Numbered from the stretch's first letter, positions 22,095-52,178 are shown. The stretch: 56,488 nt of DNA from Nanobdellota archaeon (GCA_018819065.1 JAHJQL010000062.1:1-56488), one strand, 5' to 3'. Numbers and translations are program-made. Notes: generated from the letters alone by a model not told the origin.

Positions 22095-25000
22095 ATGTTT
22101 GAAAAGAGGGGTCAGTTCACTATCTTTGTAATCCTTGGGTTTGTCTTAGTGGTTGCTTTCGTGTTTCTTTTGTTTGTGCGAAGCTTCATATTTCAAGATA
22201 AGCTTCAGGCTGAGGCTCAAAGGACTGTTAATGAAGCAATTAAGAACACTCACATCGACTTATACGTTGAAAGTTGTCTTAACAGGGTTACTGACGACGC
22301 GGTTTACTTGTTAGGCTTGCAGGGGGGCGTTCTTTACAAGAGCCAGGGAGGAATCTACCCTGACCCTGAAGGTATTGGTAAGAATAACACCATCTACGTT
22401 AATGTCAGCGATCCTTACAATAACTCTTTTTATGGTTTTCTAAACATTTCACACGCAGTAGTTCCAAATCTAAATTATACTTGCATGTATATCAATGTGC
22501 CTTTTTATCCTTTTCCAAACACTAAGTTGGATGATATAATGGGTAAGTATGCCGAAGGATACTTTAACGTGACGAAAAATTGCAGTCGAGAATCAGGCGC
22601 CTTTGGCGTTTTTAACCTTTCAAAGCTTTGCAACCCCTATGGTACAAACAGGATTAATGTATCAGGGGAGGGGGGATTTCCATGCCCAGCAATTCATTAT
22701 GGAGAACTTACTGATAACTTAACCATTCAGCAACAACTAGAAGTGTACATTTCAAATAAAACAAGCGAATGTGTGAATTTCTCTATATTTGAAAATATAG
22801 GTTACAATATAACTATTATAAACAAACCAAACACCACGCTGACATTTGGAAAAGAAGGTTTTACAGTGCAGACAACATACCCGTTCAAAGTGAGGATTAA
22901 AGGCGAATCTAGAACTGCTTTTGCAGATTTTGAAGTTAGGAAAAAAATAATGTTAAAAGAACTATATAAATATCTATACAACTTAATAATGACAGAGTAC
23001 CAAGACTTATTCTTCGATATAGATCGGAAATATAAGTTCGAGACAGATTACAACCCTGCATATTCAATCATGAGATGGGACAACCCTTGTTTTCATTGCA
23101 GTGAAGGATACGGAAAATATGATAACCTATTCATAGTTATTGATAATCGAAGCGAGATAAGGGGAAAACCTTTAATATTCAACCTCGCGATAAAGAACAG
23201 GGTGCCTGCACTTGATTTTTACAGTACAGGAAACGCCGTTTATAACATAGTTGCTATGGAAGGTAGCCTCATAAATATAACACCATATGGAAAAGATCCT
23301 GATGAGACGCCTGAAAAATTATTCTACAATTATTCTGGCTGGAAAGAAGACTACGATGAATGGTTTAATGAAAGTTGTTGTGTAAAAATTAGTGGTGGTT
23401 GCAACGTTAATAATATTAAAACGTGCATGGTTTATAATGCAACTTTTAATAATAGTTGCTGTGCTATAACTTCTTCATGCTTGACTAATCCTTCTGTTTG
23501 TGTAATAATTAATTCTAAAAGCCCGCGTAATTGGTCTAATTCTGCTGATTATAAAAATAGCAAAATGAATGCAAGCTACAAAACAAATCGTTATGATATC
23601 GGACTACACCACCTTATTTTAAGCGTTGAGGATGAAGAAGGATTAAGGGATTTTCAAAACCTTTCAATAATAGTGTATGATATTCCAATACCAATACCAA
23701 ATGGTTCACATAACTACACTGACTCATTTCTAAACCATCAAAATGCATCCATAGAAGACAAATACATCTTATACTCTTTAAAATATTCAATTATGACAAA
23801 TATGACTGAGTTTGAATGGAATGATACAATAGAAGGATGGACTCATAAAACTTATCTTAACGAAACAATAATACCTGATGATATTATTGGTGCTCCTGCA
23901 GATATTATTGGCATAATAAATGATCAATTCACATTATTTAACAGATCTAAAAAAGAGTCAATACATAATCTTACATTAAAAGGAAAATATGATGACGCTG
24001 GTGATGATAAGTGGACAACTGGAAATCTGTTTCAAGTACAAGTAAATCTTTGTCTTCCACATAGAAATAAATCAACAGCTTCATATCCGTATAACAATCT
24101 AAGCAAGGATTTCTTTGTTGGATACAATTATTCAGGTATAGCTGACCCGTTCCAGGCAGATCATACATGCTGCGACGAAAACCACTATCCTACTGGCGAC
24201 AGTGGATATATTTACATGCCAAACACGACACTTTGCTTTAGCTATACAGAGTATGGAGACTTTAAGGCAATGAGAGCACGAGAGCAGATGTTTAATAAAT
24301 CTGGAAATGGTTTGCCAACTTCAATGGTCATTACCCCTCCAGGCACAAAATACACAGTCACAGGAAGAAACTTGTATAATGGACCACTTAACACCCAAAC
24401 AAATAATAACATAAACGACATCTTCAAAAGAGTCTTTGAAAGGTCTTGCTCAGGCGACAGAGGAAACATCTGCAACGGAAGCATAACAGAAACATTCATA
24501 CAACAAGAAGCTTGTGACCAAAATGGGATAGGTGTTACAGGTCAAAGTGAGACTTGCAGTGGACCAGGAATACCAAATGTGGGAAATTACATTGTAAAAA
24601 ATGAATCATTTACTTGTATTGATTATGCTCCGGGAAATAGCTTTGAAAAAGCGTATGGACTTAATAAGAGTGGCACAACAACAGCTGCAAATGGTACTTG
24701 TAATCAAAATAAAAAATGCTCTAAACCATCAAGTGTTGGTAGTGGTTATAAATCAAGTGGAGCATACTTATGTATTGGAACTTGCGACGGAGGTAGTTGT
24801 GGATATGCAAGAGACCAAGATTGTACTTGTAGCAAAAGCACTTGTGGTGCGGATTCTCTGTGTGATGGATTAAAAGCAACAGAACTTCCGAAACCACTAA
24901 ATAGGTGCTATGCAACTACTTATTATTTAAGTGAATGTAGCAAAAATAGTTGTCAACCTGTAAATGTACCAAGTCCAACATTTAAGTGTTCAGGAGCACT

Positions 25001-25379
25001 AGATTGTTCTTGTGATCCTAAATGTGATGGAAAAACAAGTGGTTATAATTTAGGATGTAATGCAAAAACAGGAGGAAAATCGTTTTTATTAGATGAATGT
25101 AGTACTGATGGAACTGTAAATGAAGAAACAACTTGTGCATCCCCAAGTTTAGGAACAGGATGTACAGGAGATTCACAATGTAATGAAAAAACTCCTGGTT
25201 ATAAATCTTGTATATCTGGAACAAAAAAAACTAATTGGATTTGTGATAACACTTGCAAATATATTGTTTATGGGGGAACCTGTCATATAGGATCATGTGG
25301 AGCTTCCTGTGAAACAAACGCTGATTGTACTGATCCTTCAAAACCAACTTGTAACCCAAATACTTGTGCTTGTGTTTAG
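22095..25379 (+). CDS. giant (1094 aa) pilin-like-signal surface protein with Cys-rich C-terminus
   Basis: The N-terminus MFEKRGQFTIFVILGFVLVVAFVFLLF is class III/pilin-like (basic tip, RG-Q, hydrophobic helix). There are very many N-x-S/T sequons. The last ~230 aa are packed with Cys (e.g. CIGTCDGGSCGYARDQDCTCSKSTCGADSLCDG, CETNADCTDPSKPTCNPNTCACV). Confidence 0.8.
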   Translation: MFEKRGQFTIFVILGFVLVVAFVFLLFVRSFIFQDKLQAEAQRTVNEAIKNTHIDLYVESCLNRVTDDAVYLLGLQGGVLYKSQGGIYPDPEGIGKNNTIYVNVSDPYNNSFYGFLNISHAVVPNLNYTCMYINVPFYPFPNTKLDDIMGKYAEGYFNVTKNCSRESGAFGVFNLSKLCNPYGTNRINVSGEGGFPCPAIHYGELTDNLTIQQQLEVYISNKTSECVNFSIFENIGYNITIINKPNTTLTFGKEGFTVQTTYPFKVRIKGESRTAFADFEVRKKIMLKELYKYLYNLIMTEYQDLFFDIDRKYKFETDYNPAYSIMRWDNPCFHCSEGYGKYDNLFIVIDNRSEIRGKPLIFNLAIKNRVPALDFYSTGNAVYNIVAMEGSLINITPYGKDPDETPEKLFYNYSGWKEDYDEWFNESCCVKISGGCNVNNIKTCMVYNATFNNSCCAITSSCLTNPSVCVIINSKSPRNWSNSADYKNSKMNASYKTNRYDIGLHHLILSVEDEEGLRDFQNLSIIVYDIPIPIPNGSHNYTDSFLNHQNASIEDKYILYSLKYSIMTNMTEFEWNDTIEGWTHKTYLNETIIPDDIIGAPADIIGIINDQFTLFNRSKKESIHNLTLKGKYDDAGDDKWTTGNLFQVQVNLCLPHRNKSTASYPYNNLSKDFFVGYNYSGIADPFQADHTCCDENHYPTGDSGYIYMPNTTLCFSYTEYGDFKAMRAREQMFNKSGNGLPTSMVITPPGTKYTVTGRNLYNGPLNTQTNNNINDIFKRVFERSCSGDRGNICNGSITETFIQQEACDQNGIGVTGQSETCSGPGIPNVGNYIVKNESFTCIDYAPGNSFEKAYGLNKSGTTTAANGTCNQNKKCSKPSSVGSGYKSSGAYLCIGTCDGGSCGYARDQDCTCSKSTCGADSLCDGLKATELPKPLNRCYATTYYLSECSKNSCQPVNVPSPTFKCSGALDCSCDPKCDGKTSGYNLGCNAKTGGKSFLLDECSTDGTVNEETTCASPSLGTGCTGDSQCNEKTPGYKSCISGTKKTNWICDNTCKYIVYGGTCHIGSCGASCETNADCTDPSKPTCNPNTCACV

Positions 25380-25463: not shown

Positions 25464-28400
25464 ATGGTGCGGTTAGATTCGAAGTGGTTTTTGATAGTCT
25501 TTGTCTTAGTCTTATTCTTTATTAATAGCGGTTCTTCTTATGCTGCTGGAGAAGGTTGTTGTTGTTTTGACTTAAATTCTGATCCTGATGATCCTCATCA
25601 ACTAATTAGCCAAACAGTTTGTACTGCATTTGGCGGAATAAGTTTTCATCCGTTAATAATAGATAATGGTCTGTGTAGAAATCAATGTGTTCCTGTGTGT
25701 GATGTTAGTAAACGAAGTTGTGAACAAGCTGTTACTTGGTGTCAATGTGGAACTCAATTAATTGATGCTGACAGCCAATATTGTTGCGAGATGGAGTCGC
25801 AATTATTTTCTTCTAAAGATTTATGTACTGATTCTTGTGGTTCTTCTACACCTACTCACTTGTTGTATGGAACTGTCAAGGATACGTCTAATAATCCTAT
25901 TCTTGGAGCGTTTGTAAGGGTTGGTAGTGGTACTCCTGATCCATCAACAACAACTAATCTGTCTGGACATTATCGATTAACTGTTCCTCAAAGTCTTATC
26001 AGCGTTACTGCTGGAAAAACTCCTGGTTTTCTATCAAAAACCATTAATATTAATTTTTTTACTTCACAAGAGTATAACTTCGTTTTAAATGCTAGTTCAA
26101 CACAAACTTGTGGGCTTCCTAATAAGTGTTGTAACTCCACCCAAATATGTGTTAATAGTCAAGGATCTCTGGCTCAGTCTCTTGGTGCAAGGAATTGTAG
26201 TGTTGGTTGGAATTGTTATGAGAACTGTAGCTGTGTAGACATCTCTCTTCCTCCCGAGCAGTGTCTTCCTGGTTGTGACCACTTACATAATTCTATATGT
26301 GCGGCTGGTGTAAAAAAAAATTACAATTTAAATGATCCAGTTCAATACACTGAGTATTGTGCTGTTTGCACTGGTGATGCTGAATGTATTAACGAACCTT
26401 GCCTTAGCATAGGTGTTTGTGATGGTTTATGCAGCCCTAACTGTGACCCTGATGAAGATCCTGACTGTGGAAATAGTTGTAATTATGGTGGCAGTACTTC
26501 TTGGTGCAGTGGAGTTGGTGGTTTTATTTCACCAGTGAGTCCTCCGAATTATTCAGCACTAAACACAACTATTTATTGTAGTCATTGTACAAACCCAGGA
26601 CACCCCGAAACCTGTCCAACAACCATAATTGGTAGCAATACTTGTCAAAATAGTGTTTGGGATGCTGGGCGTGAACAGTGTGATAATACTTCTGCAAATC
26701 CAAATGGACCTTGTCCTTCTGGCGAGACTTGCGTTGGTTGTGAGTGTAAGGGTAACTGCACTTTAAGAGAGGCTCCAAAGGATTTGTTTGTTAAGAATGT
26801 TAAGAGGGAGCGAAAGATTAACCTTACATGGACCCTTGATGATCCCTTGTGCAATATTAGCATCAGTGAACAAACCATTCACAGATGTAAAGGGTTATCT
26901 ACTGATTGCAATGTTTTTCCAAGCACAAACTTTGTATCTATAAAAGAAAATATTCCTAATACTACAAGACAGCATAATGACACTGACAACATTGAAAACT
27001 CGACGTCTTATTGTTATGTTGTCTCTGCAATTTATGCTGATGGTGCTAGGCGTTCAAGCCTGCCAACTTGTGTTGGTACTGGCGTAGGTATCTGCATGGA
27101 TTACAACACACTATACCCTTCAAACCCAACCAGCATCTGCTATGATAATCATACAGCTACTTGCGATGATAACAACAGCATAAACACAATAACTAATTGT
27201 AATCCTTCTGCTGCTCCGGGTCGCTGCGTCCAATACCCTGATGATGCTGAGTGCAAGGGTGATGGCAACTGTCTTGACTGTAACAGCCTTTATGGAATGT
27301 TTTCTTACTTCACTCTAAGTGAAACTTATAGTTCAGAAAACTTCTTATGGGTTAATTACAGCTTTGAAGGAACTGCAGAGCTTCGTAGTTGCCGCTTATT
27401 AACTATCGATGATAATATATGCTATTTAGACACCACCACCACTAGCGTTGATGAAGTTGATAGGTGTATGAATGTCACTTCTTGTTATGATTATAAAGGA
27501 GAAGATGCTTGTTTTAGTGACAATTGTCATCTTAATACTTGCAGTTGGAAGAGTTTTAATTCAGAAACAAGTCTTGGTGTGTGTACTGAGACGAGCATTG
27601 ATAAGCAGAGGTGTGACTTGTGCACATCTGATAAGAACAATGTGTTCCCTTCCTGCAACAAGGACCTCTGTGAAACATTTGGTAATTGCTTTTATCACAA
27701 AGAGATTTTAACAAATAAATTTTTTTGTTCAAAGAATTCAGATATTAATTGTGAAAAATACACTGATAAAAAAGATTGTGTAAATAACAGTGATGTTTCT
27801 TTTGTCATTAATCACAGCGATAATTCTAACATTTCAACAAGCCAGGACTTCTTGGGTTTTGGTAAATGTAAATGGGATAATGGCAAGTGTTACAGGGATG
27901 CTGATGATAATTCGAATACTTTCCCAACCACTAACATAAAAAGGGACTGCCCCACCGGAGATTTGGTTTGCATGAAGGACTTTGGAAGTCCAAACACATC
28001 TTTAATGGTTGGGACAAACTTTAAGTCAGGGGCGAGGTTAAGGATAAATTATAATGTGAGAGATAAAAACGATTATTATCTTCCAAACGAATTAACCACT
28101 AAATATTGCATACTTAACAATACAGCAACAGAAACTTGTGGATATACCAACAGTAGCTCTTATGTTAATGCAACTGAACGTATTATTAAAAATGAATATG
28201 AGTACAAAACTGGATCTAATGATGATAATTATCCTCAAGTGTTAAAGTATTATTCTTATGATCCTGCTAAGAACTTAGAGGTTGTAAAGACTTTAAATTT
28301 CAATGTTGACAGAAAAAAACCTGTCCTTGACAATTTCTCTCACACAATTTCTTCAAGATTGTCAAATCTAAATAATGAAAATTCTTGGATTAGCGATTTA

Positions 28401-31400
28401 AATCTCTCGTTGACATTTCATGAAAATGTTACCTGCAACATTTCATTAGAGGAATCAGGTAATATTGTGCGTCAGCTCGAAAAGTTTTCTGGTGTGAACA
28501 CTTTTAACCTTTCATTCTTTGACTTGCATGATAGTAATTCTTACAAGTTGATACTAGACTGCTTTGATGATTACAACAACCCTTCAATAAACAGGTCTAT
28601 TGATTTAAGGGTTGAGGGTGATAAGAGTATAACTAATCCTTTACCTTTCCAAGAAAGATTCAATGTCACAACTGTGAATATCTCTGTTGAAACTCCTAAC
28701 GCGACAGGACCAGTTTATTGCAAGTATAGTACTGATAATAAGAAGTTTGCAGATATGAGCACTCCAATAAACATCCCAGTTCAGCACCGATTCCAGGGAA
28801 GCTTTACAGCGAGTAATAATAACAAGAACCACTCTGCAATTCTTATACTAGAAAACTCTGGCGTTTACCTCTTATACACTGCCTGTAACATTAGCTACCG
28901 CGACCCTCAGGGAAAAGAGTATTTTAAGGTTACTGAAGAAAATTTTGGTGACAGAATATTATTCTCTGTTGATTTGTTGCCACCTGTAACTTTGGTCAAC
29001 ACAACCTATCCAACACCAGAAAACGAAACTAGTTTTGAACCTTATTACCAGGATATAACCTTGAAGTTTAAATGCGCTGATATAAACAGGTATAGATCCG
29101 ACGATAATCATTTATGGTATATGAATATGTATGGTTGGAATGGCTCTTTTGGCTGCGGAAAAGTGTTTTTCTGCAACGTAACCGAAGGCCAAAATGATTG
29201 CTTCCCCTTAAAAAAGACAGACGACCCATACACGTTCAGCTTACGGTTCTCACAGCCTAAAATGCAGAATTACACAATCAAGTACTACTCTGTTGATGCT
29301 GGTGGAAACGCGCAAGCCACAAAAAGTAATATAATTAAGATTGACAACATACTAGCAAACTTGACTATGACTCTTAAAAAGAACGGCGCCATAGTTAGTG
29401 AGGTTGGTTATGGTGACTACGTAATCGATGTCGCATCTGATAAACCAATCGCAGCCATAACTAAGTTTGAGCTTAAAAAACCTGCTGCATTCACCGATAA
29501 TGTAAATGCTGTAATAAAAACTGTAGATATGGGTATTTCTGCAACTTATATAATACCTAATAATGCAACAAGCAGTAAACCTAAAGACAAGGCATTTTAT
29601 AATAACAATGATGGTCCTTTAAAGTTTGAAGTCTGGATAATTGACAGCCATCGTCTGGCATCTTCTAAGACTTTTAACTACACCTTTGATACTAGAAGAC
29701 CCGGCACACCCACTTTAGATCCTATATTTAAAGAAACAAATGAGGAAGGTTATCCTTTCAAGTACTCTTACAACAGTATAACTCTTGAAGATGGAACAGT
29801 TTATCCTGCAAAGACCTATTTTGTAAGAGACTCACAACTATTTGTAACAGGAACAACAGAGTTATCAACTAATCTTGGACTGGTTAGTTTATACTTGTTA
29901 AAAAGTGAGGATCCTGGTCTGTATCAAACAAACTTAAAGTATAATCAGACAAAGCAATCAAATAAGGGATCAGCAATAGAAACTGACAGCAAACAAACAA
30001 CATCTGACTTTTCAGCCGATAAAGGGGCAACTCAGATAAAGCTGCAAGGACAGCATCCTAACTGGGCGGCCGGCAAGTATATCACATTCTCTAAAGATGT
30101 TGGAAGAACAACTTATAATCACTTTGGAAAGTTTTACAGGATAACTAATAATGAATTTTTCGGACCTCAAAACCAAGAGACTAGAATAACATTTACACCA
30201 GGCTTAGAAACAAGCGTTGGAAGTAATCGTGATGTTTATCTTTATAATGAAAGTCACATGATTTACTGGTTTGGCATAAATATGAATACTGATTATAAAA
30301 ACCCGCCAGATAATAACAGTTACTTCTTAAGGGCTGGACTTCAAAATAAAAACGACTTCTCAGCTCTAACGATTAGTTATAACTTCTTCTTTGACAACAA
30401 AAAGCCAGACATACATCTAGTCACCCCTGCTTTTGGAGAAACACTTGTTAATGAACTACAACCTTTGAGTATTGAAATAAGAGAAGATGTTGTTGGCTCA
30501 GGAGTCAACAAAGACACTGTGAATTTATCAATCAAATATAATGACGGCGTCGAGAGCGTATACCGTGTCGATACTAATGGATTATTGTTAAGTTATGTGG
30601 GTGTTGAAAATAATGAGAGAAGATACCAATTAAATTATACTCCTAGCAGTCCTTGGGGACATGGAAATTATACCATAAAATTGTTCTTAGAGGATTACGC
30701 TGGAAACAGTTATGATGACCACGGATTGTTAAAGAGTTGCTACCCTTCAAAGGATGGTTGCTGTAATGACGCAGAAGACTCTGTGTGCGACCCTGACTGT
30801 GGACAAGACGCTGACGGAAGTTACATCTTTGGTAAGAGTGATCCTGACTGTCCAACAAATTGCAACTCCACAAGCGGTAACTGCTGTTTACTATTAACTG
30901 ACAATATTTGTGACGATGACTGCTATGACACATGGGATGTGGATTGCAGATGTAGTATTCCTGGTGCTTGTGATACTACAAATAACACTTGGTGTTATCA
31001 AGGAGGATGGATAAATAAAACTTCTGACGGCTCCAAAAAGTATTGTGATTTAGATGTTTGCGGAAATGAAGATCCTGATTGTTTCGATTGTGATAAAGAT
31101 CACGAAGGTGCCTGCAACACTCTAAATAACACTTGGTGCCACAACGTTTCAGGCGGATATTATTGGATTACTGAAGGTTACAATTTACAATGTGGACCTG
31201 TTGATAGTGATTGTCTGAGATTATACACTTACACTGCTTGCACTCAAAACTCTTGTGATGTCGAGAATCAGAAGGTTTGTTCAAACAGTTATTGGACTAA
31301 TCAAAACTATAGTGGCTTATGTAAGAGAAACGACTTCAGCTTCTATGAGTGCTTTGCTGGTGACTGTGACTTATTTAACAACTATGTCTGCTTAAACACA

Positions 31401-38900: not shown

Positions 38901-38924
38901 TATTAAAGTTTTTAGATGTTATAA

Positions 38925-41419: not shown

Positions 41420-41527
41420 ATGGGCGAAGCAATTTTAGAATCATTTAAGACTTACTTAGTTGTTGCAGCAATGATTCTCTTGCTACTGTTCATAGTAGTT
41501 TTTGGAATTTTAAGGAGGGGTTTTTGA
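41420..41527 (+). CDS. small single-TM protein (35 aa), hypothetical
   Basis: MGEAILESFKTYLVVAAMILLLLFIVVFGILRRGF*. A TATA-like TTTTTATAAT lies about 28 nt upstream. The stop overlaps the next ATG (TGATG). It is below the ORF-track cut-off. Confidence 0.4.
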   Translation: MGEAILESFKTYLVVAAMILLLLFIVVFGILRRGF

Positions 41528-42372: not shown

Positions 42373-42376
42373 GAAA

Positions 42377-43280: not shown

Positions 43281-43430
43281 ATGACTAAAAAAATGTTTAA
43301 TAAGAAAGGTGAAGAAATTTCAGAATTAATGAAGTGGTTGCTATTTATAGTCATTTTAGTGACGTTAGTACTTATAATTTGGATGACACAAAAAGGTTTA
43401 TCAATTAAAAGTATATTTCCGTTTTTTTAA
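43281..43430 (+). CDS. mini class III signal-only ORF (49 aa)
   Basis: MTKKMFNKKGE-EISELMKWLLFIVILVTLVLIIW... It shares the MFNKKG start with the ORF at 44139 and is below the ORF-track cut-off. Confidence 0.4.
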   Translation: MTKKMFNKKGEEISELMKWLLFIVILVTLVLIIWMTQKGLSIKSIFPFF

Positions 43431-43431
43431 G

Positions 43432-44052
43432 ATGAAAAAAGGACAAATAAATAAGTTGGGAAAAATTTTGTTGGCACTTGCACTTTTAATAATTATAATT
43501 ATTGCCGTAGTTTTAAAACTACCATCTATTGTCAAAGGTATAAAAGAGATGACTGATTCAAACAAGCCAAAAGAGTTATCAACAGATTGTGAAAATGAAG
43601 CCTTAGCATTGCCTGAACAGATAGAAGGCTGTTTTGACTCAGGAAGCTACGATTTAGCAGTTGAAAAAGCGGAAAAATTCCTAAAAGAGAATCCAGATGA
43701 TAAAACAATTGTCGCTGCAAAGATGCACAACTTCATTTCTTGGTCATACATTGAAATGGATACTGCTAAATACGGCGAAAAAATCATGAAGAACGCTAAA
43801 AAAGCAAAAGAGTTATCATATGATTTAAATGAAGAAGGTACAAGTGAATATATACGTGCTTTAGAAGCTATTTTAGAGTATAGTTATAGAGAATTTAAAA
43901 AATTAAAACCAGCACTTAAAGTTAATAAACCAAGAGGAATTTTTAGATCTTACTGGCAAAGTTATAAAGAAATGTATAGAACTCAAGCAACCCCTTATGA
44001 TCAAAAAAATTTAGAAACACAAAAAGATTTGGACAAGTCTTTAAACCCATAA
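43432..44052 (+). CDS. class III signal peptide (pilin-like) protein with helical (TPR-like?) body
   Basis: 206 aa. MKKGQ-INKLGKILLALALLIIIIIAVV. The remainder is predicted helical by eye. Confidence 0.65.
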   Translation: MKKGQINKLGKILLALALLIIIIIAVVLKLPSIVKGIKEMTDSNKPKELSTDCENEALALPEQIEGCFDSGSYDLAVEKAEKFLKENPDDKTIVAAKMHNFISWSYIEMDTAKYGEKIMKNAKKAKELSYDLNEEGTSEYIRALEAILEYSYREFKKLKPALKVNKPRGIFRSYWQSYKEMYRTQATPYDQKNLETQKDLDKSLNP

Positions 44053-44138
44053 AACCTCAGCCATACTTGAAATTTACAAAAAATTTATATAGTAATTACT
44101 CCATTTTTTAATAAGCTTAATATGAGGTGTTAATGAAA

Positions 44139-44396
44139 ATGTTTAATAAAAAAGGTCAAGGAATAAGTATTAACGTGATTATAATTGCAGCAATAGCACT
44201 TCTGGTCCTGGTAATTTTATCAGTTCTTTTGATTAGAAGTGGAGGAAACGTTGTTACAGGAACATCATGTGCAGGTGTAGGTGGAACTTGCAGTTCTTCA
44301 TGCTCAGATTTATCTGAAGGAACAAAGATATACTCCCCACATCCAACCGCGAAATGCACAGATTCCAACGATAAATGTTGCATAATCCTTGGATAA
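44139..44396 (+). CDS. mini-pilin with 6-Cys C-terminal knot (array member 1)
   Basis: GAGGTG Shine-Dalgarno-like element 9 nt upstream. MFNKKGQ-GISINVIIIAAIALLVLVILSVLLI. Head is C-x6-C-x3-C-x17-C-x6-CC. Confidence 0.75.
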   Translation: MFNKKGQGISINVIIIAAIALLVLVILSVLLIRSGGNVVTGTSCAGVGGTCSSSCSDLSEGTKIYSPHPTAKCTDSNDKCCIILG

Positions 44397-44400
44397 AAAA

Positions 44401-44658
44401 ATGATTAAAAACAAAAAAGGAGACATAAGCATCAGCGTCATAATCATGATTGCAATAGGCCTTTTAGTGTTGATAGTGATTGCAATTCTGATATTTAGGT
44501 CTGGTCAAAGCGCATCAAGTGGAACTAGTTGCATATCAAAAGGTGGCGTTTGCAAGCAAACCTGTGAGGTTGGCCACGCCATAGGCACCGCTGGAATGTA
44601 TGGTTGTAACACTGAGACTTGCTGTAGCCCGGTAAAAAGGGATGATTGGGGAACATAA
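44401..44658 (+). CDS. mini-pilin with 6-Cys C-terminal knot (array member 2)
   Basis: MIKNKKGD-ISISVIIMIAIGLLVLIVIAILIF. Head is C-x6-C-x3-C-x13-C-x4-CC. Confidence 0.75.
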   Translation: MIKNKKGDISISVIIMIAIGLLVLIVIAILIFRSGQSASSGTSCISKGGVCKQTCEVGHAIGTAGMYGCNTETCCSPVKRDDWGT

Positions 44659-44915
44659 TGTATAAAAAAGGCGAAATATCAACTTCAACAATGATATACA
44701 TAGGTTTAGGACTCCTAGTATTAATACTAGGGGCTATAATGATTTCAAAAGCTTATAGAAACAGTCAACAAGTAAACAGCAACTGTGGTCTCGTAGATAA
44801 AAACTCTAAATGTCAACCACAGAAATGTCCAGAAGATCAATCAGCAATAGGATTTTGCCCTGACAAATCATCATCACCAGAAGAAAAATATTATTGTTGT
44901 AAAACTAGTGGTTGA
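44658..44915 (+). CDS. mini-pilin with 6-Cys C-terminal knot (array member 3)
   Basis: MYKKGE-ISTSTMIYIGLGLLVLILGAIMI. Head is C-x8-C-x4-C-x9-C-x12-CC. The start overlaps the previous stop (TAATG). Confidence 0.75.
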   Translation: MYKKGEISTSTMIYIGLGLLVLILGAIMISKAYRNSQQVNSNCGLVDKNSKCQPQKCPEDQSAIGFCPDKSSSPEEKYYCCKTSG

Positions 44916-44916
44916 A

Positions 44917-45216
44917 ATGGTTAAAACTAATAAAAAAGGACTAACAATGGACATGTTTGGAAAAGTTGTGCTTATGGTCATTGTAGTTCTTGTTGGAATA
45001 GCTATAGCATTAAAGATAGGTCCCACAGTATCTAAAGGAGAGGAAACTTTTTCTTGTGGCAACACTGGTAATATGTCTAATGGGACTTGTGTAGAAAACA
45101 AAGCCAAATGCCAAGAATTAGGAGGCTTCTCCAGAGGACTTGACAAGGGTTGTAGCAGTTCAACTAAAACAGACGACCCACAGAAACCTTACTGTTGTGA
45201 AATACCTAAATCATGA
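44917..45216 (+). CDS. mini-pilin with 6-Cys C-terminal knot (array member 4)
   Basis: MVKTNKKGL-TMDMFGKVVLMVIVVLVGIAIAL. Head is C-x10-C-x6-C-x13-C-x13-CC. Confidence 0.7.
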   Translation: MVKTNKKGLTMDMFGKVVLMVIVVLVGIAIALKIGPTVSKGEETFSCGNTGNMSNGTCVENKAKCQELGGFSRGLDKGCSSSTKTDDPQKPYCCEIPKS

Positions 45217-46691
45217 TGAAAAAAGGCGAAATTAGTCTTCTGGTAACACTTACAATCACAGTCATATTTTTAATACTAGTTTTCATCGTGACGTTAAAGT
45301 TAATCGGACCATTGCTTTGGAATGAAAAAAACAGCGTGTCTTACGAGAACTATAAACTATTAACAACAGCAGTAGAAAGTGTGACGAAGTCAAAGATGAA
45401 TACTTCAATGCAAAAAATGGTTCTTCAATTAGAGCCAGGATTTGACATAATAGCATTTGACCCTGGAGAGGGTAAGATAAAAACAGACATACCAAAGTGG
45501 CTGGTTTTTAAAGAAGCATCACGTGATAGACCTGATGAATGTGAAACAAATAAAGGTTGTCTATGCATATATAAAGGTGGATCGGTTATTGAATGCAAAA
45601 GCTTTGAAAAAACTTATTTTTTTAGTGAACTTAATAGTGATATGATTAGTCAAAGTATGGGAGAAGAAAAAAAAACTCACACTCTTAGTTCTTATAAATA
45701 TGAAGGAATCATGTTTTTTGGAGATTTAGAATTAGCATTATTAGCAATAATATCTGTTGATTCAACTCTTTTTGGTGTTCAACCAATGTATGTAGAGAAT
45801 TACAGGGATAAAGGCAATAATTACGTGTTGATTTCTAATCTCAACAACAAGCTCTTAAAAAGATTTAAGATGATTAGTAAATGCCCAACAGATAAGTCTG
45901 ATGGAGGCTGTAATAAATATCAGCATTATGATGAAGTATTTAACTTAACAGATAGTAATGGTAAGATTGATTATTTTGTTTGTAAATTCAATGAGAAGAG
46001 TGAAAAATGTGTGAATAAAAGCATAGAACTATGCGCACCTGGAATGATAGATTGGGAGTGTGCGTGTGGAGATACTGCTTATGAATTTGGAATGTGTATT
46101 AATGAAGGGTATTATGATGCAGATATTAGCAGTGAGTACTGTTTCATAAACAAGTTTGATGAATCGTCTACTTGTAAAACTTATGAAGATGGATCTGATG
46201 CTGAGCAAAATAAGTATGCATGTACATTCAACCGTTGTGGTGTTAAAGATAAGTGTTATTGGAACAATGATGATTGTGAAGCTTGTGAGCAGACTTGTTT
46301 GTGCAAAGACTATGGGGGTAAAGATGGTTGGATTAGATTCATTGATCCATGCGACTGTGACAAAGACAAAAAACCCCTCGACACAGATGACTGTTTAAAT
46401 TGTCAAAACGAAATAAAGAAAGACTGTAAGAACTACCTTTCAGAAAATCAATGCATAAAAAATGGGTGTTTCGTAAGCGTTATATATTCAAACCAACAAA
46501 CCGGATCAACACCGTCTATCAAAGGTTGTATACCTGAATATTCAGGAAATGAATATAAACAGTGTGTCAATTGTTTGGAAAGTTGTGATTGTAAAGATTA
46601 TGTTAACGCAAAAATGAAGATGTTAGATCTTTGTGATTGTGACAAGGATAGACTAATAGGTGAATCTGAAACAGCAGATGGATGTCAGTAA
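45213..46691 (+). CDS. class III signal peptide (pilin-like) protein with Cys-rich C-terminal half
   Basis: 492 aa. MMKKGE-ISLLVTLTITVIFLILVFIV. The C-terminal ~200 aa have many Cys, including two C.CKDY...D.CDCDKD units. Confidence 0.75.
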   Translation: MMKKGEISLLVTLTITVIFLILVFIVTLKLIGPLLWNEKNSVSYENYKLLTTAVESVTKSKMNTSMQKMVLQLEPGFDIIAFDPGEGKIKTDIPKWLVFKEASRDRPDECETNKGCLCIYKGGSVIECKSFEKTYFFSELNSDMISQSMGEEKKTHTLSSYKYEGIMFFGDLELALLAIISVDSTLFGVQPMYVENYRDKGNNYVLISNLNNKLLKRFKMISKCPTDKSDGGCNKYQHYDEVFNLTDSNGKIDYFVCKFNEKSEKCVNKSIELCAPGMIDWECACGDTAYEFGMCINEGYYDADISSEYCFINKFDESSTCKTYEDGSDAEQNKYACTFNRCGVKDKCYWNNDDCEACEQTCLCKDYGGKDGWIRFIDPCDCDKDKKPLDTDDCLNCQNEIKKDCKNYLSENQCIKNGCFVSVIYSNQQTGSTPSIKGCIPEYSGNEYKQCVNCLESCDCKDYVNAKMKMLDLCDCDKDRLIGESETADGCQ

Positions 46692-46747
46692 TTAGTTAAA
46701 TGTTCTTTTCAAAAATTATTTAAACCTTTATATCAACTTTTTTGTTC

Positions 46748-47620
46748 ATGAATAAAAGAGGAGATGAAAAGCTTAGCAAAAAGCTTACTTTCTACGCATT
46801 CATATTTATATTGGTTGCAATAGTTATACTGTCAGTCTTTAGGTTTATAGGAAACACGCTAGACGACACCACTTTTTGGCGTGGATACTATGCCAAGGAT
46901 GCTGGTTTAATGATTAGTGCTGGTGAAACTGGAAGAGGTGTTTTTGAGCTTAGTTATAACACAAAAAAAGCTGAGAAACCACTCGTTTTCAATCTTAAAA
47001 TTAATAACGAAGTTGAAATCTATGATCACGACCCAAATGCAAAGACTAAACAAAGCTCCACATTCAAGTTCATAGGTGATAAAAAAATAAAAATTGAGCC
47101 TGCGGAGATAATATCAACTTTCTTCAACATATATATTGATGATAAAAAAGTCAACGCCAGCAAAGAAGCAATTAAAAAAGATAGTTGCCCATCCATAGAT
47201 ACAAAAGCAACCCTGATTAGCAATATAAAAATATATGTTGATTCAGATGACAAATTTAAAAATTTTGAAAACTTGTTAATTAATGATTTAAAAATAAGTG
47301 GATTTAAGATTGCAAACAGTAAATATGAGAGTGATATAGATTTAGCATTAATTTTGGCTAATAGTTCAACAAACACTCTATCATTTTTTTATGAACACAC
47401 TCCCAGGAAGAGCGAGAAGATAAGTTGCATCATAAAAAATAAACTGGTTGAAAAATACCCTGACAAATATTCTTATTACAAGATTAACAAGATAGATTAT
47501 AACTCGAAGTGGTGGTTTGCACTCTCAAAATCAAATGTCGGGTTGGTGTTTGAAATCAACGAATTGACTGACGACGCGATTTTATTAATTGGAGACTCGG
47601 TGGAGGAATATTATGGATGA
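46748..47620 (+). CDS. N-terminally anchored protein, weak class III-like signal
   Basis: MNKRGD-EKLSKKLTFYAFIFILVAIVILSVF. TATA-like TTATTTAAA about 30 nt upstream. Confidence 0.6.
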   Translation: MNKRGDEKLSKKLTFYAFIFILVAIVILSVFRFIGNTLDDTTFWRGYYAKDAGLMISAGETGRGVFELSYNTKKAEKPLVFNLKINNEVEIYDHDPNAKTKQSSTFKFIGDKKIKIEPAEIISTFFNIYIDDKKVNASKEAIKKDSCPSIDTKATLISNIKIYVDSDDKFKNFENLLINDLKISGFKIANSKYESDIDLALILANSSTNTLSFFYEHTPRKSEKISCIIKNKLVEKYPDKYSYYKINKIDYNSKWWFALSKSNVGLVFEINELTDDAILLIGDSVEEYYG

Positions 47621-48107
47621 AGCTGGTGAAGGCGAGGGTAAGTGGCTGCTTGAGATGATTCCAAAACTAATATTCCTTGGAATAGCAATAACTGTGATAA
47701 TAGTGTTTACCGCACTTTTCATCATGAATAACTTAAGAACTGATGATTTGGAGATTGACGTCTTTTTAAACAAACTAATATATTCTAAAAACACCATATC
47801 ATACTATGATTCTATGACTGGAAGGACTTACCTTGGAATAATCGACCCAAACAAACTAACAGAGAAAAACTTAAACGAATCAATGGAGTATAACGGTACT
47901 ATGTACGCTGCAAAGATAACCCTTGGAAGCCAAGAAGCTTACTATTTAAAATCAAGGTATCTAAACCTTGAAGGACTGGCCAAAGCAAAAATTAAAGGTC
48001 CAGGAGGGGCAGATTACAGGTTTAAAAAATTTGAAGTTGGAGTGATGGATAACAACGTCTTAAGAACAGAGACTATTAAGATTGAAATGATAAAGGCAAG
48101 AACATGA
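47613..48107 (+). CDS. N-terminally anchored small protein, hypothetical
   Basis: GGAGG about 8 nt upstream of the ATG at 47613. MDEAGEGEGKWLLEMIPKLIFLGIAITVIIVFTALFI. There is no [KR]G-Q tip. It overlaps the previous stop. Confidence 0.55.
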   Translation: MDEAGEGEGKWLLEMIPKLIFLGIAITVIIVFTALFIMNNLRTDDLEIDVFLNKLIYSKNTISYYDSMTGRTYLGIIDPNKLTEKNLNESMEYNGTMYAAKITLGSQEAYYLKSRYLNLEGLAKAKIKGPGGADYRFKKFEVGVMDNNVLRTETIKIEMIKART

Positions 48108-48643
48108 TTAAAGGCAAAAAAGGGCAAGAAATGATTGTTGACATATTCTCATATTTATTATTCATAATAATAATTTTAACATTCATAATCTTACTGTTTC
48201 ACCAAGAAAAAGAAACCAGAAAGAACATCGCAACAGGCGTAAGAGCTGATTTTTACGAGACCAGACTCTTAATACTCATGAGACAACCAATCACTGGGAC
48301 TTATCAAACATTTGCGGAGATGATTATTGATTCACCATATAATGATTATAAAAAAGATTTTGTTTCAAAAGAAATAACAAACACTTTTGACAAAGAATGG
48401 GGTGAATGGTGGGACTTTACAGTATACACTCAAAAACCATTAGGAAGAGAACAAAAAAAATGGGATACTGGTTATAGCTTTACTGGACAAGCAGCTGTTA
48501 ATATCTTAAAAAACTTTATCGCCATGGCAGTAGGAAGCAAAATACCACTACCCTTATCTTATCCTGTTGAAATTTCAGTAACTCTTCCAGGTCATAACAA
48601 CGAAAATATAATTGTGAAATTCAGATATTGGATGATTGCATAG
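48104..48643 (+). CDS. class III signal peptide (pilin-like) protein
   Basis: 179 aa. MIKGKKGQ-EMIVDIFSYLLFIIIILTFIILLF. ATGA overlap with the previous gene. Confidence 0.7.
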   Translation: MIKGKKGQEMIVDIFSYLLFIIIILTFIILLFHQEKETRKNIATGVRADFYETRLLILMRQPITGTYQTFAEMIIDSPYNDYKKDFVSKEITNTFDKEWGEWWDFTVYTQKPLGREQKKWDTGYSFTGQAAVNILKNFIAMAVGSKIPLPLSYPVEISVTLPGHNNENIIVKFRYWMIA

Positions 48644-48653
48644 GTATAAAAAA

Positions 48654-51600
48654 ATGAATAAGAAAGGACAAATATTTGTGTTGATGATTTCGATATTCAT
48701 GGGAATAGCATTATTCACCATATTCATAAGTTTAAATAACAAATACTCTGCGGCAAGAGTAGCCAGCACAAGCATAGGCAGTAGTGCATCAGCAGTGATT
48801 AACACTTATCAAAAACAAGAAGCAGCACTGCTCTACCTTGACTTATCAGCACAGCAAGCGCTTCAAAAAAGCCTGTATGACCTTGGAGAAAACGGTGGCT
48901 TTGACCTCGCAGAATGCGGAAGTTCAATATACCCACTATGGAACACCCACGACAAGAACTGCATCCCAGACTATGAAGAAAACCTAAAAAAACTCTTCAA
49001 GCCAGAACTTGAAAACAGAACAAGCAAATTTAATGATGTACAATTTGCAAAAGACTACGAATTCACTGTAAATCCCTCTAACGGACAAGTCGAAATAATG
49101 GGGTTGACTAGTGAGAAGATAACACTCGCGGTTGCTAAAGACTCCAAAGTAAAGCAAGTAACTTCTTCACAAACAACTGGACAACTACAAACAACATACA
49201 AACTTTATGAGTCAGTAAAAAACAAAGTTAATACTTTTGACTCAACAATCCAAGAAGCTGCAAAGAAATACGATCTCCCACCAACAGTACTCAAAGCACA
49301 AATCGCTGTAGAATCTAGCGGAGATCCGAAAATCATTAATCATCTTGGATGTGCAGGTCTTGGCCAGTTTTGTACAATCAGCGGAACGGCACAACAATAT
49401 TTCGGAACAAATAACGTTGTAGTCATAGAAAAGGAGCCTAAATGTCAAAAAACAGGTAATTTTTACAAATGTGATACAACAATATACTCTAAAGACGATC
49501 GTTTTGTTCCCGCAAAGATGATTGAAGCACAAGCAAAATATCTCAAAGAATTATCTGACAGGTATAAAAAAAAAGGATACACAGATTACTTTGCATTTGG
49601 CCTCGCAGCTTATAACAGAGGAGCCGGAAATATTGATAACGATATAATTAAAACCGGCAAGGATGACCCTTCGTGGGCAGATATTTCTCTTGTTTCCGGA
49701 TTTCCTGTTGAAGCAAAAAATTATGTCCCAAAAATAAATGAATACAACCTTCAATGGGGAGAGGGCGGAAAGGATATAAGTCTTGGATATGGATATATTG
49801 GAGGGTACGATGCAGTGATTGGCACTTTTGAATTCGAGCAAAACTTCAAAGCAACGGAAGGCTACAACTTAACAGTTTATGAAGAGCTTAAAACGTTTGT
49901 CAAAGACGCGCTTAGAGACTGTGATAACGCCGTTGATGATTGCATAGAGATTAAAAGAACAGATTTTAACTCAAAACACAGCGAACAAATTGTTTATATG
50001 AGTGATTGCGAGGAAGGAACTACTAAAATTCTTTATGACTTTGCAGAGAATATAATTGATTGCGGAGACACTACTAGTGATAATTGTAAGTGCAAGGTTA
50101 ATGAGGATTATAGTGCTTCAACAGTTGCTTCGATTCAGGGAAAATATCTTTTCTCTGCAAAATTTCACGAGTTCAAGTTTGGTGGAGGTACAAATCTTGA
50201 TCAAAAACCAATACATTGGGTGAACGACCTTAACAACACCTTTAACAAATCTTTTGAAGATGAGATGAACAGGATAATTGATTCCTTTGAAGAGAATACA
50301 GGGGTTGAAATCGCAATTATAAGCATCCAGTCTACCAGTGATATAGAGAATGAAGGTAAAAGCTTTTTTAATTATTGGGGTGTTGGAAAGAAAGATGAGA
50401 AGAATGGGATACTAATCATCGTATCGACAAATCCAGAAGCGTCAACTATCATACTTGGTGAAGGATTAAACAAAATCATAACAAACGATGTGCTTTCTCA
50501 AATGAAAACAAAATTAGCATCCAGCCTAAGTAACAAAAAGGTTGAGGTTGGAATTACAGAAGTGGTCAACACAATAATTACGAAAGTCAAGACTAAGTAT
50601 GAAGAGGAAGACTTTAAAAAAAAGTCTCCTGAGAGATACGACCTTGAACTTAAAGGAGATAAAGATTTAATTAGTGTGAAAGCAAAGACTTACCACATCA
50701 ACTGGTTGCCTTTGACTAAAAATCAATATGGATACAGCTACTCATTTTTTTATAAGGATACTGGTAAGTTTGACTTTGCAAGCATTAAATTCATAGACAA
50801 ACAAGGGGGAGTGCATGAAATTTCTAATTTTAAAAACCTTTCCCTGCTAAAGAAAAAAGATAATTTTTCATTCATAATGAGCAATGATAATGGAAAAGTA
50901 ATGAATGAGACTAATGAAGAAATAACCCCTCCAAGTGACAACTGCGAACCTGCAAAGAGCATATTTAGGATGTGTCTGAAAACCAATAATAAACTGCCAG
51001 TGATGGAGGATAATAAGTTACAATATAAAGAATCAAAGATAAAATTCGCACTTAACCTGATTGACAAGGTTCCACCAGAAAAAGCAGAGAACTTAGAGTT
51101 TGTGTGGCTATCTGACATACAAAGGGTGTTGATAACTTGGGAAGAGAAAAAGACAGTAGACATGGCTACTTATTATGAAATATTCTACTCAGACAAAGCG
51201 TTCACTACGCCAACCACTAATCTTTGGCTTGCAACAGTCTATAAAAAGGTTAATATAACTGGTAATTCAAGTTACGACCGATTAAGAGAAGGAAAATCAG
51301 GCAATCCACCAGTGCAACCAATCACTCCTAACATACCAACGTCTCCAGTCACACCACCAACAGCTGATGACGAAGATGCAGATAAACTAAGTACAGTGGT
51401 TGATAACTTCGTTGATACTTCACAAAGTGATCCTAACTCGCCAAGCAACCTTCTTAAAATACTTCATAACAACACTTTATACTTTGAAGACCCTCAAACA
51501 GGAAAACCTCATTATAGAAAATATTATTTACTAATTAAAAAAGACTCAATAATCCAAGAAGCTGATAAATCAAAAACAAACCTAGAATACCACTTTGGAA

Positions 51601-52178
51601 TTGTTGGATCAGATAAATATGGAAACAAAATCATTGAAAAGATAGAAATATTAAAAATACCAATCTCAAACTTGTGCGGAGCAGTAGTTGAGTACGCTAA
51701 AGAATATATAGGAACAGGCTACATTCCCAAACGAGAATTTTATAATGGATGGAGTATCTGCAAAGCAAGTGACGCGAATAAAAGATTATGTAGGACTCAA
51801 TGCGGATCTTTTGTCACAAATGCTTTTAGATACGCACCAGATACGGGATTAACAGACTCAGAGTTACCAAAAGGTGATGGAAGTAAAAAATGTGCTGGAC
51901 CAAATGTAAAGTACCGTTTTTCAAATTCTGAAGAGCTACAACCAGGAGACATATTCTCTGTGATTGGAGGCGAAGGCCACACAGGAATATATATTGGTGT
52001 GGGAACTTTAAGCGATAAAGCACAAAATAAAAACTGTTTCTTAAAATTCACTCCTGACAACAATGGTGAACAAGTCTTCATACATTCTATAGAGCCTGTT
52101 TGTTATAATACTTTAGAACAACTAGAAACAATGGGATACAAAATTAATCGCTATTGTAGAGTTAATGCTTGCGCTTGA
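48654..52178 (+). CDS. pilin-like-signal multidomain cell-wall hydrolase: lytic transglycosylase (SLT) + TPM domain + FN3-like + NlpC/P60 peptidase
   Basis: MNKKGQ-IFVLMISIFMGIALFTIFISL. SLT motifs AVESSGDP, GLGQF and AAYNRGAGN. TPM motifs GVEIAIISIQS...NGILIIVS...IILGEGL. Pro-rich linker. NlpC/P60 motifs QCGSFVTNAF...GHTGIYIG...FIHS. Confidence 0.85.
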   Translation: MNKKGQIFVLMISIFMGIALFTIFISLNNKYSAARVASTSIGSSASAVINTYQKQEAALLYLDLSAQQALQKSLYDLGENGGFDLAECGSSIYPLWNTHDKNCIPDYEENLKKLFKPELENRTSKFNDVQFAKDYEFTVNPSNGQVEIMGLTSEKITLAVAKDSKVKQVTSSQTTGQLQTTYKLYESVKNKVNTFDSTIQEAAKKYDLPPTVLKAQIAVESSGDPKIINHLGCAGLGQFCTISGTAQQYFGTNNVVVIEKEPKCQKTGNFYKCDTTIYSKDDRFVPAKMIEAQAKYLKELSDRYKKKGYTDYFAFGLAAYNRGAGNIDNDIIKTGKDDPSWADISLVSGFPVEAKNYVPKINEYNLQWGEGGKDISLGYGYIGGYDAVIGTFEFEQNFKATEGYNLTVYEELKTFVKDALRDCDNAVDDCIEIKRTDFNSKHSEQIVYMSDCEEGTTKILYDFAENIIDCGDTTSDNCKCKVNEDYSASTVASIQGKYLFSAKFHEFKFGGGTNLDQKPIHWVNDLNNTFNKSFEDEMNRIIDSFEENTGVEIAIISIQSTSDIENEGKSFFNYWGVGKKDEKNGILIIVSTNPEASTIILGEGLNKIITNDVLSQMKTKLASSLSNKKVEVGITEVVNTIITKVKTKYEEEDFKKKSPERYDLELKGDKDLISVKAKTYHINWLPLTKNQYGYSYSFFYKDTGKFDFASIKFIDKQGGVHEISNFKNLSLLKKKDNFSFIMSNDNGKVMNETNEEITPPSDNCEPAKSIFRMCLKTNNKLPVMEDNKLQYKESKIKFALNLIDKVPPEKAENLEFVWLSDIQRVLITWEEKKTVDMATYYEIFYSDKAFTTPTTNLWLATVYKKVNITGNSSYDRLREGKSGNPPVQPITPNIPTSPVTPPTADDEDADKLSTVVDNFVDTSQSDPNSPSNLLKILHNNTLYFEDPQTGKPHYRKYYLLIKKDSIIQEADKSKTNLEYHFGIVGSDKYGNKIIEKIEILKIPISNLCGAVVEYAKEYIGTGYIPKREFYNGWSICKASDANKRLCRTQCGSFVTNAFRYAPDTGLTDSELPKGDGSKKCAGPNVKYRFSNSEELQPGDIFSVIGGEGHTGIYIGVGTLSDKAQNKNCFLKFTPDNNGEQVFIHSIEPVCYNTLEQLETMGYKINRYCRVNACA
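49236..49680 (+). other. SLT-type lytic transglycosylase domain (approximate bounds)
   Basis: LKAQIAVESSGDPKII (Glu codon 49311-49313), AGLGQF and GLAAYNRGAGNID. Confidence 0.75.
50240..50620 (+). other. TPM-domain (approximate bounds)
   Basis: FEDEMNRIIDSFEENTGVEIAIISIQSTSDIENEGKSFFNYWGVGKKDEKNGILIIVSTNPEASTIILGEGLNKIITND. Confidence 0.65.
51690..52160 (+). other. NlpC/P60 cysteine peptidase domain (approximate bounds)
   Basis: AVVEYAKEYIGTGY..., catalytic-type Cys in QCGSFV (51801-51803), LQPGDIF, His in GHTGIYIG (51978-51980), then FIHS. Confidence 0.75.

Follow-up and report, generated by a model that had tools for sequence, protein, structure and literature searches.

The window analysed here, a stretch of 56,488 nucleotides from a Nanobdellota archaeon (GCA_018819065.1, JAHJQL010000062.1:1-56488), is a segment of an archaeal chromosome with a GC content of about 35%. 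It contains an island of about 21 genes and about 30 kb (22095-52178, all on the + strand), which resembles its flanks in GC content and in which three giant Cys-rich proteins are followed by 18 co-directional open reading frames (ORFs). We named the giants W1 to W3 and the downstream ORFs W4 to W19, and two mini-ORFs (41420-41527 and 43281-43430) complete the 18. ORF calling placed the giants of 1094, 2510 and 1957 aa and the 18 ORFs, the last of which ends at 52178, where a first-pass annotation of the window had seen them. The junctions also agreed with its description of translational coupling and of tiny or negative spacers: the genes are close or overlapping, with TAATG at W2/W3, ATGA-type overlaps at W14/W15 and W17/W18, and TGATG-type overlaps elsewhere.

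Pilin-like N-termini and their families

The N-termini of the island proteins were compared with a strict rule, in which [KR][GAS] is followed within 11 residues by an 18-residue uncharged hydrophobic window. It was matched by 14 of 19 island ORFs and by none of the 28 ORFs outside the island (Fisher p = 3.4e-8). W10, W14 and the 49-aa mini-ORF also match the motif by eye, which gives 16 of the 18 downstream ORFs, plus W1, while W17 and the 35-aa mini-ORF do not match. The earlier count of 16 downstream ORFs with [KR]G or KA before a hydrophobic helix was thus reproduced.

Family alignments with 13-21 orthologs each showed that, even in distant genomes, the residues that follow [KR][GAS] form a motif which is invariant within a family and particular to it. 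Residue -1 is G, A or S and residue +1 is mostly Q. The motifs are K[RS][GS]Q[FIV]T[IM]F in the W1 family, [KR][GAS]Q[IL]xxQ[VI]FIY in W4, K[GA]x[FI]E[IV]QFNW in W5, K[AG]Q[IM]Q[MI]GE[ST]IA in W6 and K[GAS]Q[MT]E[IM][ML]GL in W7. [KR][GA]Q, with Gln at +1, is present in W1, W4-W7, W10, W11, W18 and W19, and the Q is kept in the orthologs. The Epd pilins of Methanococcus, which are processed by the peptidase EppA, have the sites RAQI, KGQV, KGQL and KGQI (PMC4371748), and the island motif matches them. The N-termini have the look of genuine class III (type IV pilin-like) signals, a reading which the alignments and this match support.

Four conserved pilin-like proteins, W4 (38925-39404), W5 (39406-40404), W6 (40408-40896) and W7 (40880-41371), follow the giants directly, and W4 is colinear in 25 loci. 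W5 likely starts with GTG, and its ORF opens at 39340. The AlphaFold2 (AF2) model of W5 is confident (pLDDT 93.2, pTM 0.85), with a continuous helix at residues 3-56 that leads into a beta-rich domain and, after it, a helical bundle. The modelled architecture is pilin-like, a 54-residue N-terminal helix and then a globular head. The first-pass annotation had proposed structure modelling, and for W5 it gave this architecture while Foldseek found no known relative, with nothing at E<0.001 among viral structures (BFVD). Profile searches of the PDB with the W5 and W16 families also gave no match, and the modelled head of W5 is apparently a new fold. The W5 family is large: an exhaustive profile search gave 2163 representative clusters at 50% identity, 1156 of them at E<=1e-30 and all full-length, and the matches that carry names are all called "hypothetical protein".

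The middle of the island begins with the 35-aa mini-ORF (41420-41527), which has a single transmembrane (TM) segment, and W8 (41524-42372), a pilin-like protein with 8 Cys whose relatives are 36-48% identical. W9 (42335-43249) is pilin-like with a likely start at 42377 (MRKGTLL), and the 49-aa mini-ORF (43281-43430) is pilin-like too (NKKGEEISELMKWLLF...); relatives have a single-TM ORF of 40-45 aa at the same site. W10 (43432-44052) has a pilin-like KKGQ N-terminus and a helical domain, and its position is conserved but not its sequence. Four tandem pilin-like proteins of 89-102 aa with 6 Cys each then follow (44127-45216) and are candidate major subunits: W11 (44127-44396), W12 (44389-44658), W13 (44646-44915) and W14 (44908-45216). 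W15 (45213-46691) is a pilin-like protein of 492 aa with 7.3% Cys. A conserved end module is opened by W16 (46742-47620), which is pilin-like, and continues with W17 (47589-48107), an N-terminal TM protein with a likely start at 47613, and W18 (48104-48643), which is pilin-like (KKGQE). In W9, a glycine-zipper segment lies in the C-terminal part (aa 220-267, 42995-43135; weak Gly-zipper Pfam matches) beside the N-terminal helix, so W9 may cross the membrane twice or oligomerise in it.

Giant proteins and the predicted terminal hydrolase

W1 (22095-25379) is a pilin-like giant of 1094 aa, with KRGQ and a hydrophobic helix at its start, a conserved N-terminal domain of about 400 aa and a C-terminal extension rich in Cys and sequons. 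W2 (25464-32996, 2510 aa) is adhesin-like and gives a weak CarboxypepD_reg match, and W3 (32996-38869, 1957 aa), whose start overlaps the stop of W2, has Ig-like N-terminal domains. The first-pass annotation had claimed export signals, extreme Cys content in repeated modules and very many sequons for all three. The signals of W2 and W3 are Sec-type, but the N-terminus of W1 (MFEKRGQFTIFVILG...) is class III-like as in the pilin-like genes, and we correct this point. The Cys content stood: it is 5.1% in W1, 6.0% in W2 and 5.2% in W3 against 1.2% in flank proteins, and the Cys are clustered in repeat blocks, W3 for instance having 15 DCGG-type modules. The sequons (N-x-S/T) are enriched over the expectation from composition in W1 (40 vs 15) and W2 (73 vs 43), but not in W3 (27 vs 24).

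W3 also has 4 TSP3 repeats. A TM segment (aa 1654-1676) is followed by a cytoplasmic tail of about 280 highly charged residues, together aa 1654-1957 (37955-38869), and the final 66 or so residues are conserved (53% in L008:2013-2213). By its sequence W3 is predicted to be a type I membrane protein, and its tail could link a surface structure to the cell interior. In W2, the core regions aa 789-1751 and aa 2154-2510 are kept in relatives. Homologs of W1 with 39-43% identity lie directly upstream of W2 in L009-L011, and they are shorter (about 400 aa) in distant loci.

The last gene, W19 (48636-52178), overlaps W18 by 8 nt and encodes a modular pilin-like protein, a predicted murein hydrolase, with a likely start at 48654 (MNKKGQIF). 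Its SLT domain (PF01464; aa 204-342, nt 49245-49661) was found at E 8e-12 with 45.3 bits (cut-off 21.3), and the translation contains AVESSG (the catalytic Glu-Ser), GLGQF and AAYNRGAGN. Its TPM domain (PF04536; aa 529-648, nt 50220-50579) was found at E 1e-20 with 74 bits (cut-off 22.1), and TPM is also present in the ortholog P0002. The C-terminus, about nt 51795-52019, matches NlpC/P60 (PF00877) below the cut-off (E 0.016, 15.6 bits, cut-off 23), and the same region has weak matches to NCBIfam RipC (E 0.14) and to CwlO in the PDB (E 1.1). QCGSFV, with a candidate Cys, and GHTGIY and FIHS, each with a candidate His, are conserved in P0002, which is the sole ortholog having this region. An NlpC/P60 endopeptidase at the C-terminus of W19 is thus weakly supported, and a full-length AF2 model from a 4-sequence alignment reached pLDDT 34.8. 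The first-pass annotation had described a pilin N-terminus fused to SLT, TPM and NlpC/P60 domains; the first two are confirmed, while the third stays below threshold.

Orthologs of W19 share the KKGQ and helix N-terminus and an N-terminal region of about 160 aa. SLT starts at aa 193-211 and ends at aa 303-342 in W19 and the five other SLT-bearing orthologs. In one ortholog (P0004, GCA_023266675) a Peptidase_M23 domain is found at aa 208-307 in place of SLT, with W16-W17-W18 before the gene and RPA after it, and of the whole cluster this genome has only the W16-W19 module. Two unrelated murein-hydrolase folds in one slot argue that the cutting of bacterial peptidoglycan is the selected function, and this swap strengthens the reading of W19 as a murein hydrolase. 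Judged from its sequence, W19 would count as a modular type IV pilin, as it joins a pilin-like N-terminal module to separate functional domains. One of seven W16 orthologs matches Amidase_3 (N-acetylmuramoyl-L-alanine amidase; E 1e-5, L002:8046-8963) without support from the PDB, and the other six give none. From this match W16 may hold a degenerate second murein-binding or murein-cleaving domain.

Conservation of the cluster and the A24 peptidase linked to it in relatives

Related loci were found by alignment-based searches, and a single-protein W19 search of GTDB genomes gave none. They belong almost exclusively to metagenome-assembled genomes (MAGs) titled Candidatus Woesearchaeota, Nanoarchaeota or Nanoarchaeia. 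We counted colinearity in loci having at least three of W4-W7, which were 25 loci in about 20 Woesearchaeota/Nanoarchaeota MAGs, and the order of W4-W7 is colinear in 25 of 25. The scattering in related genomes, which the first-pass annotation had named as a point that could argue against its hypothesis, is therefore not the case.

In the window, LeuRS and carbamoyl-phosphate synthase genes lie upstream of the island, genes for an RPA-like OB-fold protein and a DAGK-like protein lie downstream, and a ribosomal operon on the - strand encodes S13, S4, S11, a Rpb3/RpoD-like RNA polymerase subunit, L13 and S9. Gene-by-gene BLAST showed the same order of the island in L001, L002 and L005-L008, and RPA comes after the W19 ortholog in L001, L002 and L008. 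W1, W2 and W3 are also conserved in L009-L011, where the ribosomal protein operon adjoins the W1 side. In the clade of the window the full W1-W19 order is bounded by the S13 operon and RPA, a chromosomal site shared by at least 6 species. Identity to relatives is 25-60% for the cluster proteins and 58-77% for RPA, which together with the constant position indicates that the cluster is vertically inherited and fast-evolving, not mobile. The core in distant Woesearchaeota consists of a Cys-rich protein of about 800-1500 aa, a W1-like protein (about 400 aa), one W3-like giant, W4-W7, W12-like small pilins, W8 and W9. One of the related loci, L007, comes from Woesearchaeota bin.69, which is possibly the "Bin 69" of PMC9723730, a match by name only.

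No A24 peptidase, the family to which class III signal peptidases belong, is encoded in the window. A gene for an 887-aa protein with an A24-like N-terminal domain is divergent from the start of the cluster in Woesearchaeota RIFCSPHIGHO2_02_FULL_36_13 (L035/L036). The protein has D20 and AGDGKLF, matches Arc_PepC (E 9e-12) and carries a fused PMT_2 glycosyltransferase (E 5e-10). We found at least 123 homologs of this peptidase, mainly in Woesearchaeota/Nanoarchaeota; many match PF01478, PF06819 or both, and the names prepilin peptidase, FlaK or CpaA have been given to some. The family profile matches FlaK (3S0X) over both catalytic Asp (E 3e-4), and D20, G87, D88 and K90 are invariant or nearly so. 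The peptidase is divergent from the cluster in the same manner in L039 and L040. Homologs of W1, W2 or W3 lie just upstream on the opposite strand at 12 of the 82 peptidase loci retrieved (L039, L040 and 80 loci of GTDB genomes), including the complete chromosome OY970338.1, and cluster and peptidase were found in the same MAG in JACPMS01, JACPBQ01 and JAGVXP01.

The peptidase belongs to a conserved module (L036:1-9714, L039:10001-21101, L040:10001-21230, L097:9989-13353) with an HxsD-like gene (PF27806), a small ORF, a radical SAM/SPASM gene and a gene for a protein of about 105 aa. In a clustering of 82 loci, a radical SAM neighbour was present in 69, HxsD-like in 65 and the 105-aa protein in 48. 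The PMT_2 glycosyltransferase is often in the module as well, and so are sugar-nucleotide genes. These neighbours hint that the substrates may undergo peptide or glycan modification. A ribbon-helix-helix-like ORF of 45-48 aa (MTRINIE.DD.LHKK...; L035:172-318 and L040:9566-9703 on the - strand), which may regulate transcription of the cluster, separates the peptidase from the first cluster gene.

The window itself encodes a GxGD intramembrane protease of the presenilin/SPP family 10 kb upstream of the island (11244-12149, + strand; PF06550 E 6e-13, GGGD at aa 225). Presenilin/SPP-family proteases cleave helices in type II orientation, which is the orientation of the pilin-like N-termini. We considered it as a surrogate peptidase and rejected it, as it belongs to family A22, not A24, and no evidence links it to the cluster.

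Interpretation and comparison with known systems

We give even chances to the island being a vertically inherited, Woesearchaeota-specific cluster (DPANN; Nanoarchaeota in GTDB) for a type IV pilin-like surface apparatus that depends on class III signals. In such an apparatus W1 and W4-W7 would be five conserved minor-pilin-like parts, each with its own invariant N-terminal helix, and W11-W14, tiny and disulfide-rich, would be candidates for the main subunits. W8-W10 and W15-W18 would be further pilin-like accessory proteins. W2 and W3 would be giant Sec-exported adhesin-like proteins, W3 being anchored through its C-terminal TM segment and cytoplasmic tail. In this clade W19 would be the terminal modular pilin, whose conserved N-terminal carrier would present a lytic transglycosylase, TPM and a possible NlpC/P60 endopeptidase.

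The data show the gene content, the motifs, the synteny, the linkage to a peptidase in relatives, the SLT and TPM domains and the exchange of SLT for M23; from these we infer cleavage, fibre formation, a bacterial target and a biological role in three steps. An A24 (FlaK/EppA-like) peptidase would cut the short basic leader after the G or A of [KR][GA]Q. The processed helices might then assemble as a short fibre, or as a pseudopilus-like bundle rooted in the membrane, that bears the adhesins and the hydrolase. This structure would bind a bacterial cell and open its peptidoglycan locally, for attachment, access or scavenging.

Several results weigh against this reading. The curated pilin models of Pfam, including PF04021, and of NCBIfam match none of the island proteins, and PF04021 (Class_IIIsignal) has no match in them at E<=1 to 5. 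The head of W5 has no pilin-like structural neighbour in the PDB (Foldseek of the confident model, none at E<0.001). In distant lineages the cluster seems to be without the hydrolase (L035). The A24 peptidase was not seen for the clade of the window, whose large contigs (to 1.07 Mb) are absent among the best 80 or 120 matches. A PilB/ArlI-type ATPase (PF00437, T2SSE) and a PilC/ArlJ-type platform (PF00482, T2SSF) are absent from the window and from about 120 related loci, amounting to 1.88 Mb around the cluster and the peptidase, which were searched with motif regular expressions and with tblastn/phmmer using E. coli HofB and HofC; no HofC-like match appeared at E<=1. These searches and domain scans bear out the earlier statement that the window encodes no assembly ATPase, platform protein or prepilin peptidase. 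One paper reports that type IV pilus (T4P) components are missing from DPANN genomes (10.1101/2020.05.14.094862), and a 2026 census lists systems 1 and 4A from the superfamily of type IV filaments (TFF) in a few DPANN and some Nanoarchaeota.

The missing motor at the loci is the main weakness of the fibre model. Membership of the TFF superfamily is not established, because neither the ATPase nor the platform that it calls for was found in the locus. For the composite fibre or adhesion organelle that the first-pass annotation had suggested, the class III signals, synteny, hydrolase and peptidase linkage in relatives speak in favour, but the fibre is not established and no motor lies at the loci. 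Its statement that no described archaeal appendage corresponds to this gene combination holds in the Pfam, NCBIfam and Foldseek searches.

The chief rival, which we regard as possible but doubtful, is a processed, non-filamentous complex: proteins trimmed by the A24 peptidase and rooted in the membrane by their N-terminal helices would form a bindosome-like or envelope layer displaying adhesins and hydrolase. The lack of ATPase and platform near both cluster and peptidase fits it, as does the reported lack of T4P machinery in DPANN (10.1101/2020.05.14.094862), and W3 and W9 have additional membrane anchors. Class III signals are also known on archaeal proteins that are not pili, e.g. the binding proteins of Sulfolobus (PMC4371748; 10.64898/2026.04.22.720090). 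However, even the bindosome requires its own PilB/PilC pair (PMC4371748), and the 76-aa mature W11-W14 and the strictly conserved W4-W7 helices resemble packing subunits, not mere anchors.

The other explanations are less likely. W19 could be an independent antibacterial or scavenging exoenzyme that stands at the end of the operon by chance, or could remodel the archaeon's own wall, which we think unlikely. Peptidoglycan hydrolases with which archaea kill bacteria have been described, and Nanoarchaeota are rich in such enzymes (PMC12352652). Distant clusters seem to lack W19, and GCA_023266675 has the W16-W19 module only. On the other side, W19 has the same KKGQ and helix N-terminus as the pilin-like proteins and overlaps W18, and the order W16-W17-W18-W19 is kept even in the M23 variant. 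Murein synthesis is not known from archaea.

It is still less probable that the N-termini are uncleaved signal anchors of type II envelope membrane proteins, with KG as a positive-inside feature, an idea that would agree with the silence of the curated pilin models and with a window lacking the peptidase; against it, about 16 unrelated families have [KR][GAS]Q at a fixed position and none of the 28 other ORFs has it, and in 12 genomes the A24 peptidase gene recurs beside the cluster. It is scarcely credible that the block is a mobile island, a prophage or a viral tail-like element, although its size, its single strand, its giant proteins and its wall hydrolases led the first-pass annotation to speak of an "island". 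This reading was rejected because the chromosomal position from S13 operon to RPA is conserved. The GC content is also like that of the flanks, integrase, repeat or tRNA borders were not found among the genes scanned, and W5 lacks viral structural neighbours.

Returning to the pilin-like apparatus, the nearest known system in processing motif and in number of pilins, as far as sequences tell, would be the Epd pilus of Methanococcus maripaludis (TFF system 1, reported by the 2026 census in a few DPANN). It shares the [KR][GA]Q sites with Gln at +1 (PMC4371748), a locus in which many different pilin-like genes stand together with accessory proteins of adhesin-like type, and a larger A24 peptidase dedicated to the system. 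In contrast, the Epd locus has the ATPase EpdL and the platforms EpdJ/K, none of which was found here. The island proteins have no PF04021/DUF361 match and no detected sequence homology to Epd genes, and the island has the giant Cys-rich proteins and the murein hydrolase in addition.

By logic, and as an analogy, the closest would be bacterial minor-pilin/PilY1 tip complexes and modular pilins. As in the tip complexes of type IVa pili and of the type II secretion system (FimU-PilVWX with PilY1; GspH-I-J-K), a fixed set of 4-5 minor-pilin-like proteins, one much larger (W5), lies beside giant adhesin genes. By analogy from the genes this suggests a priming or tip complex presenting an adhesin, although there is no sequence or fold similarity and these complexes belong to another domain of life. 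The pseudopilus of type II secretion (GspG-K) has no Pfam, NCBIfam, PDB or Foldseek similarity to the island proteins, and no GspE/F-like genes were found in the window or the related loci. Like the modular type IV pilins (Streptococcus sanguinis PilB, and many in bacteria within the candidate phyla radiation, CPR), W19 would combine a pilin-like carrier with an exchangeable effector, SLT or M23. Those are bacterial, however, and have the IPR012902 motif, and the survey of them mentions no peptidoglycan-hydrolase modular pilin.

The bindosome of Sulfolobus also has large functional proteins with class III signals and is a "functionalised" type IV filament system (PMC4371748; 10.64898/2026.04.22.720090), but its ATPase and platform (BasE/F) are its own, and it carries sugar-binding proteins as cargo instead of hydrolases or adhesins. 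In Saccharibacteria (CPR), ultrasmall episymbionts bind the host by pilin-based structures; there the bacterial T4P machinery is complete and experimentally proven, whereas no motor genes were found at the loci examined here.

W19 belongs to the large SLT-domain proteins, which are specific to the smallest Woese-/Pacearchaeota and for which binding or degradation of bacterial walls has been proposed (PMC8204110, PMC9723730). They were noted earlier in AR20, in Lake A MAGs and as fam00969, a member of module 98, which is Woese-/Pacearchaeota-specific and has 51 families (PMC8204110, PMC9723730). These papers treated the enzyme alone. In the literature searched, a description of the operon of about 20 genes with class III signals and pilin-like N-termini, of the A24 linkage or of the SLT/M23 swap was not found. 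The class of the terminal SLT enzyme is thus already known, and the pilin-like operon around it is apparently not described in that literature. W19 would give archaea a first example of a pilin-like carrier that bears a peptidoglycan hydrolase.

Woesearchaeota and Pacearchaeota, which rank with the most abundant of the archaea not yet cultured, have been reported to lack T4P components. The cluster offers concrete and widespread candidate contact genes, with more than 2,100 clusters at 50% identity in the W5 family alone, a processing peptidase linked to them and an enzyme module whose predicted target is specifically bacterial peptidoglycan. Through it, the proposed life of some DPANN archaea as episymbionts or predators of bacteria becomes directly testable, and it adds several protein families with apparently new folds. 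Tentatively, and with a rather modest chance of being right, we propose that Woesearchaeota build an unrecognised pilin-based contact organelle for cross-domain attachment to and breaching of bacteria. It would have its own subunit families, an A24 peptidase dedicated to it, which in some cases is fused to a glycosyltransferase, no canonical PilB/PilC motor, and a tip with giant adhesins and exchangeable SLT/M23 hydrolases.

Some minor observations were made on the island and its relatives. TATA-like boxes (TTTTAAAT, TTTTTTATAAT, TTTATATA and TTTATATC) occur in the AT-rich spacers 38869-38925, 41371-41524, 44052-44127 and 46691-46742, close to where the first-pass annotation had placed such boxes, and at 35% GC they are indistinguishable from chance. 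In two Zodletone Woesearchaeota MAGs (L013:16403-19400 and L014:13480-16300) an ABC-type ATPase (GSSGSGKTT) and a membrane protein of 587-675 aa are encoded soon downstream of the W7 homolog, with one short ORF on the opposite strand between. Many contigs with cluster or peptidase (L018, L024-L026, L042, L048, P0008 and others) bear the titles "uncultured Methanosarcinales archaeon" (binchicken MAGs), "Bacteroidota bacterium", "Parcubacteria" or "Desulfobacteraceae", and they are probably mislabelled or misbinned DPANN.

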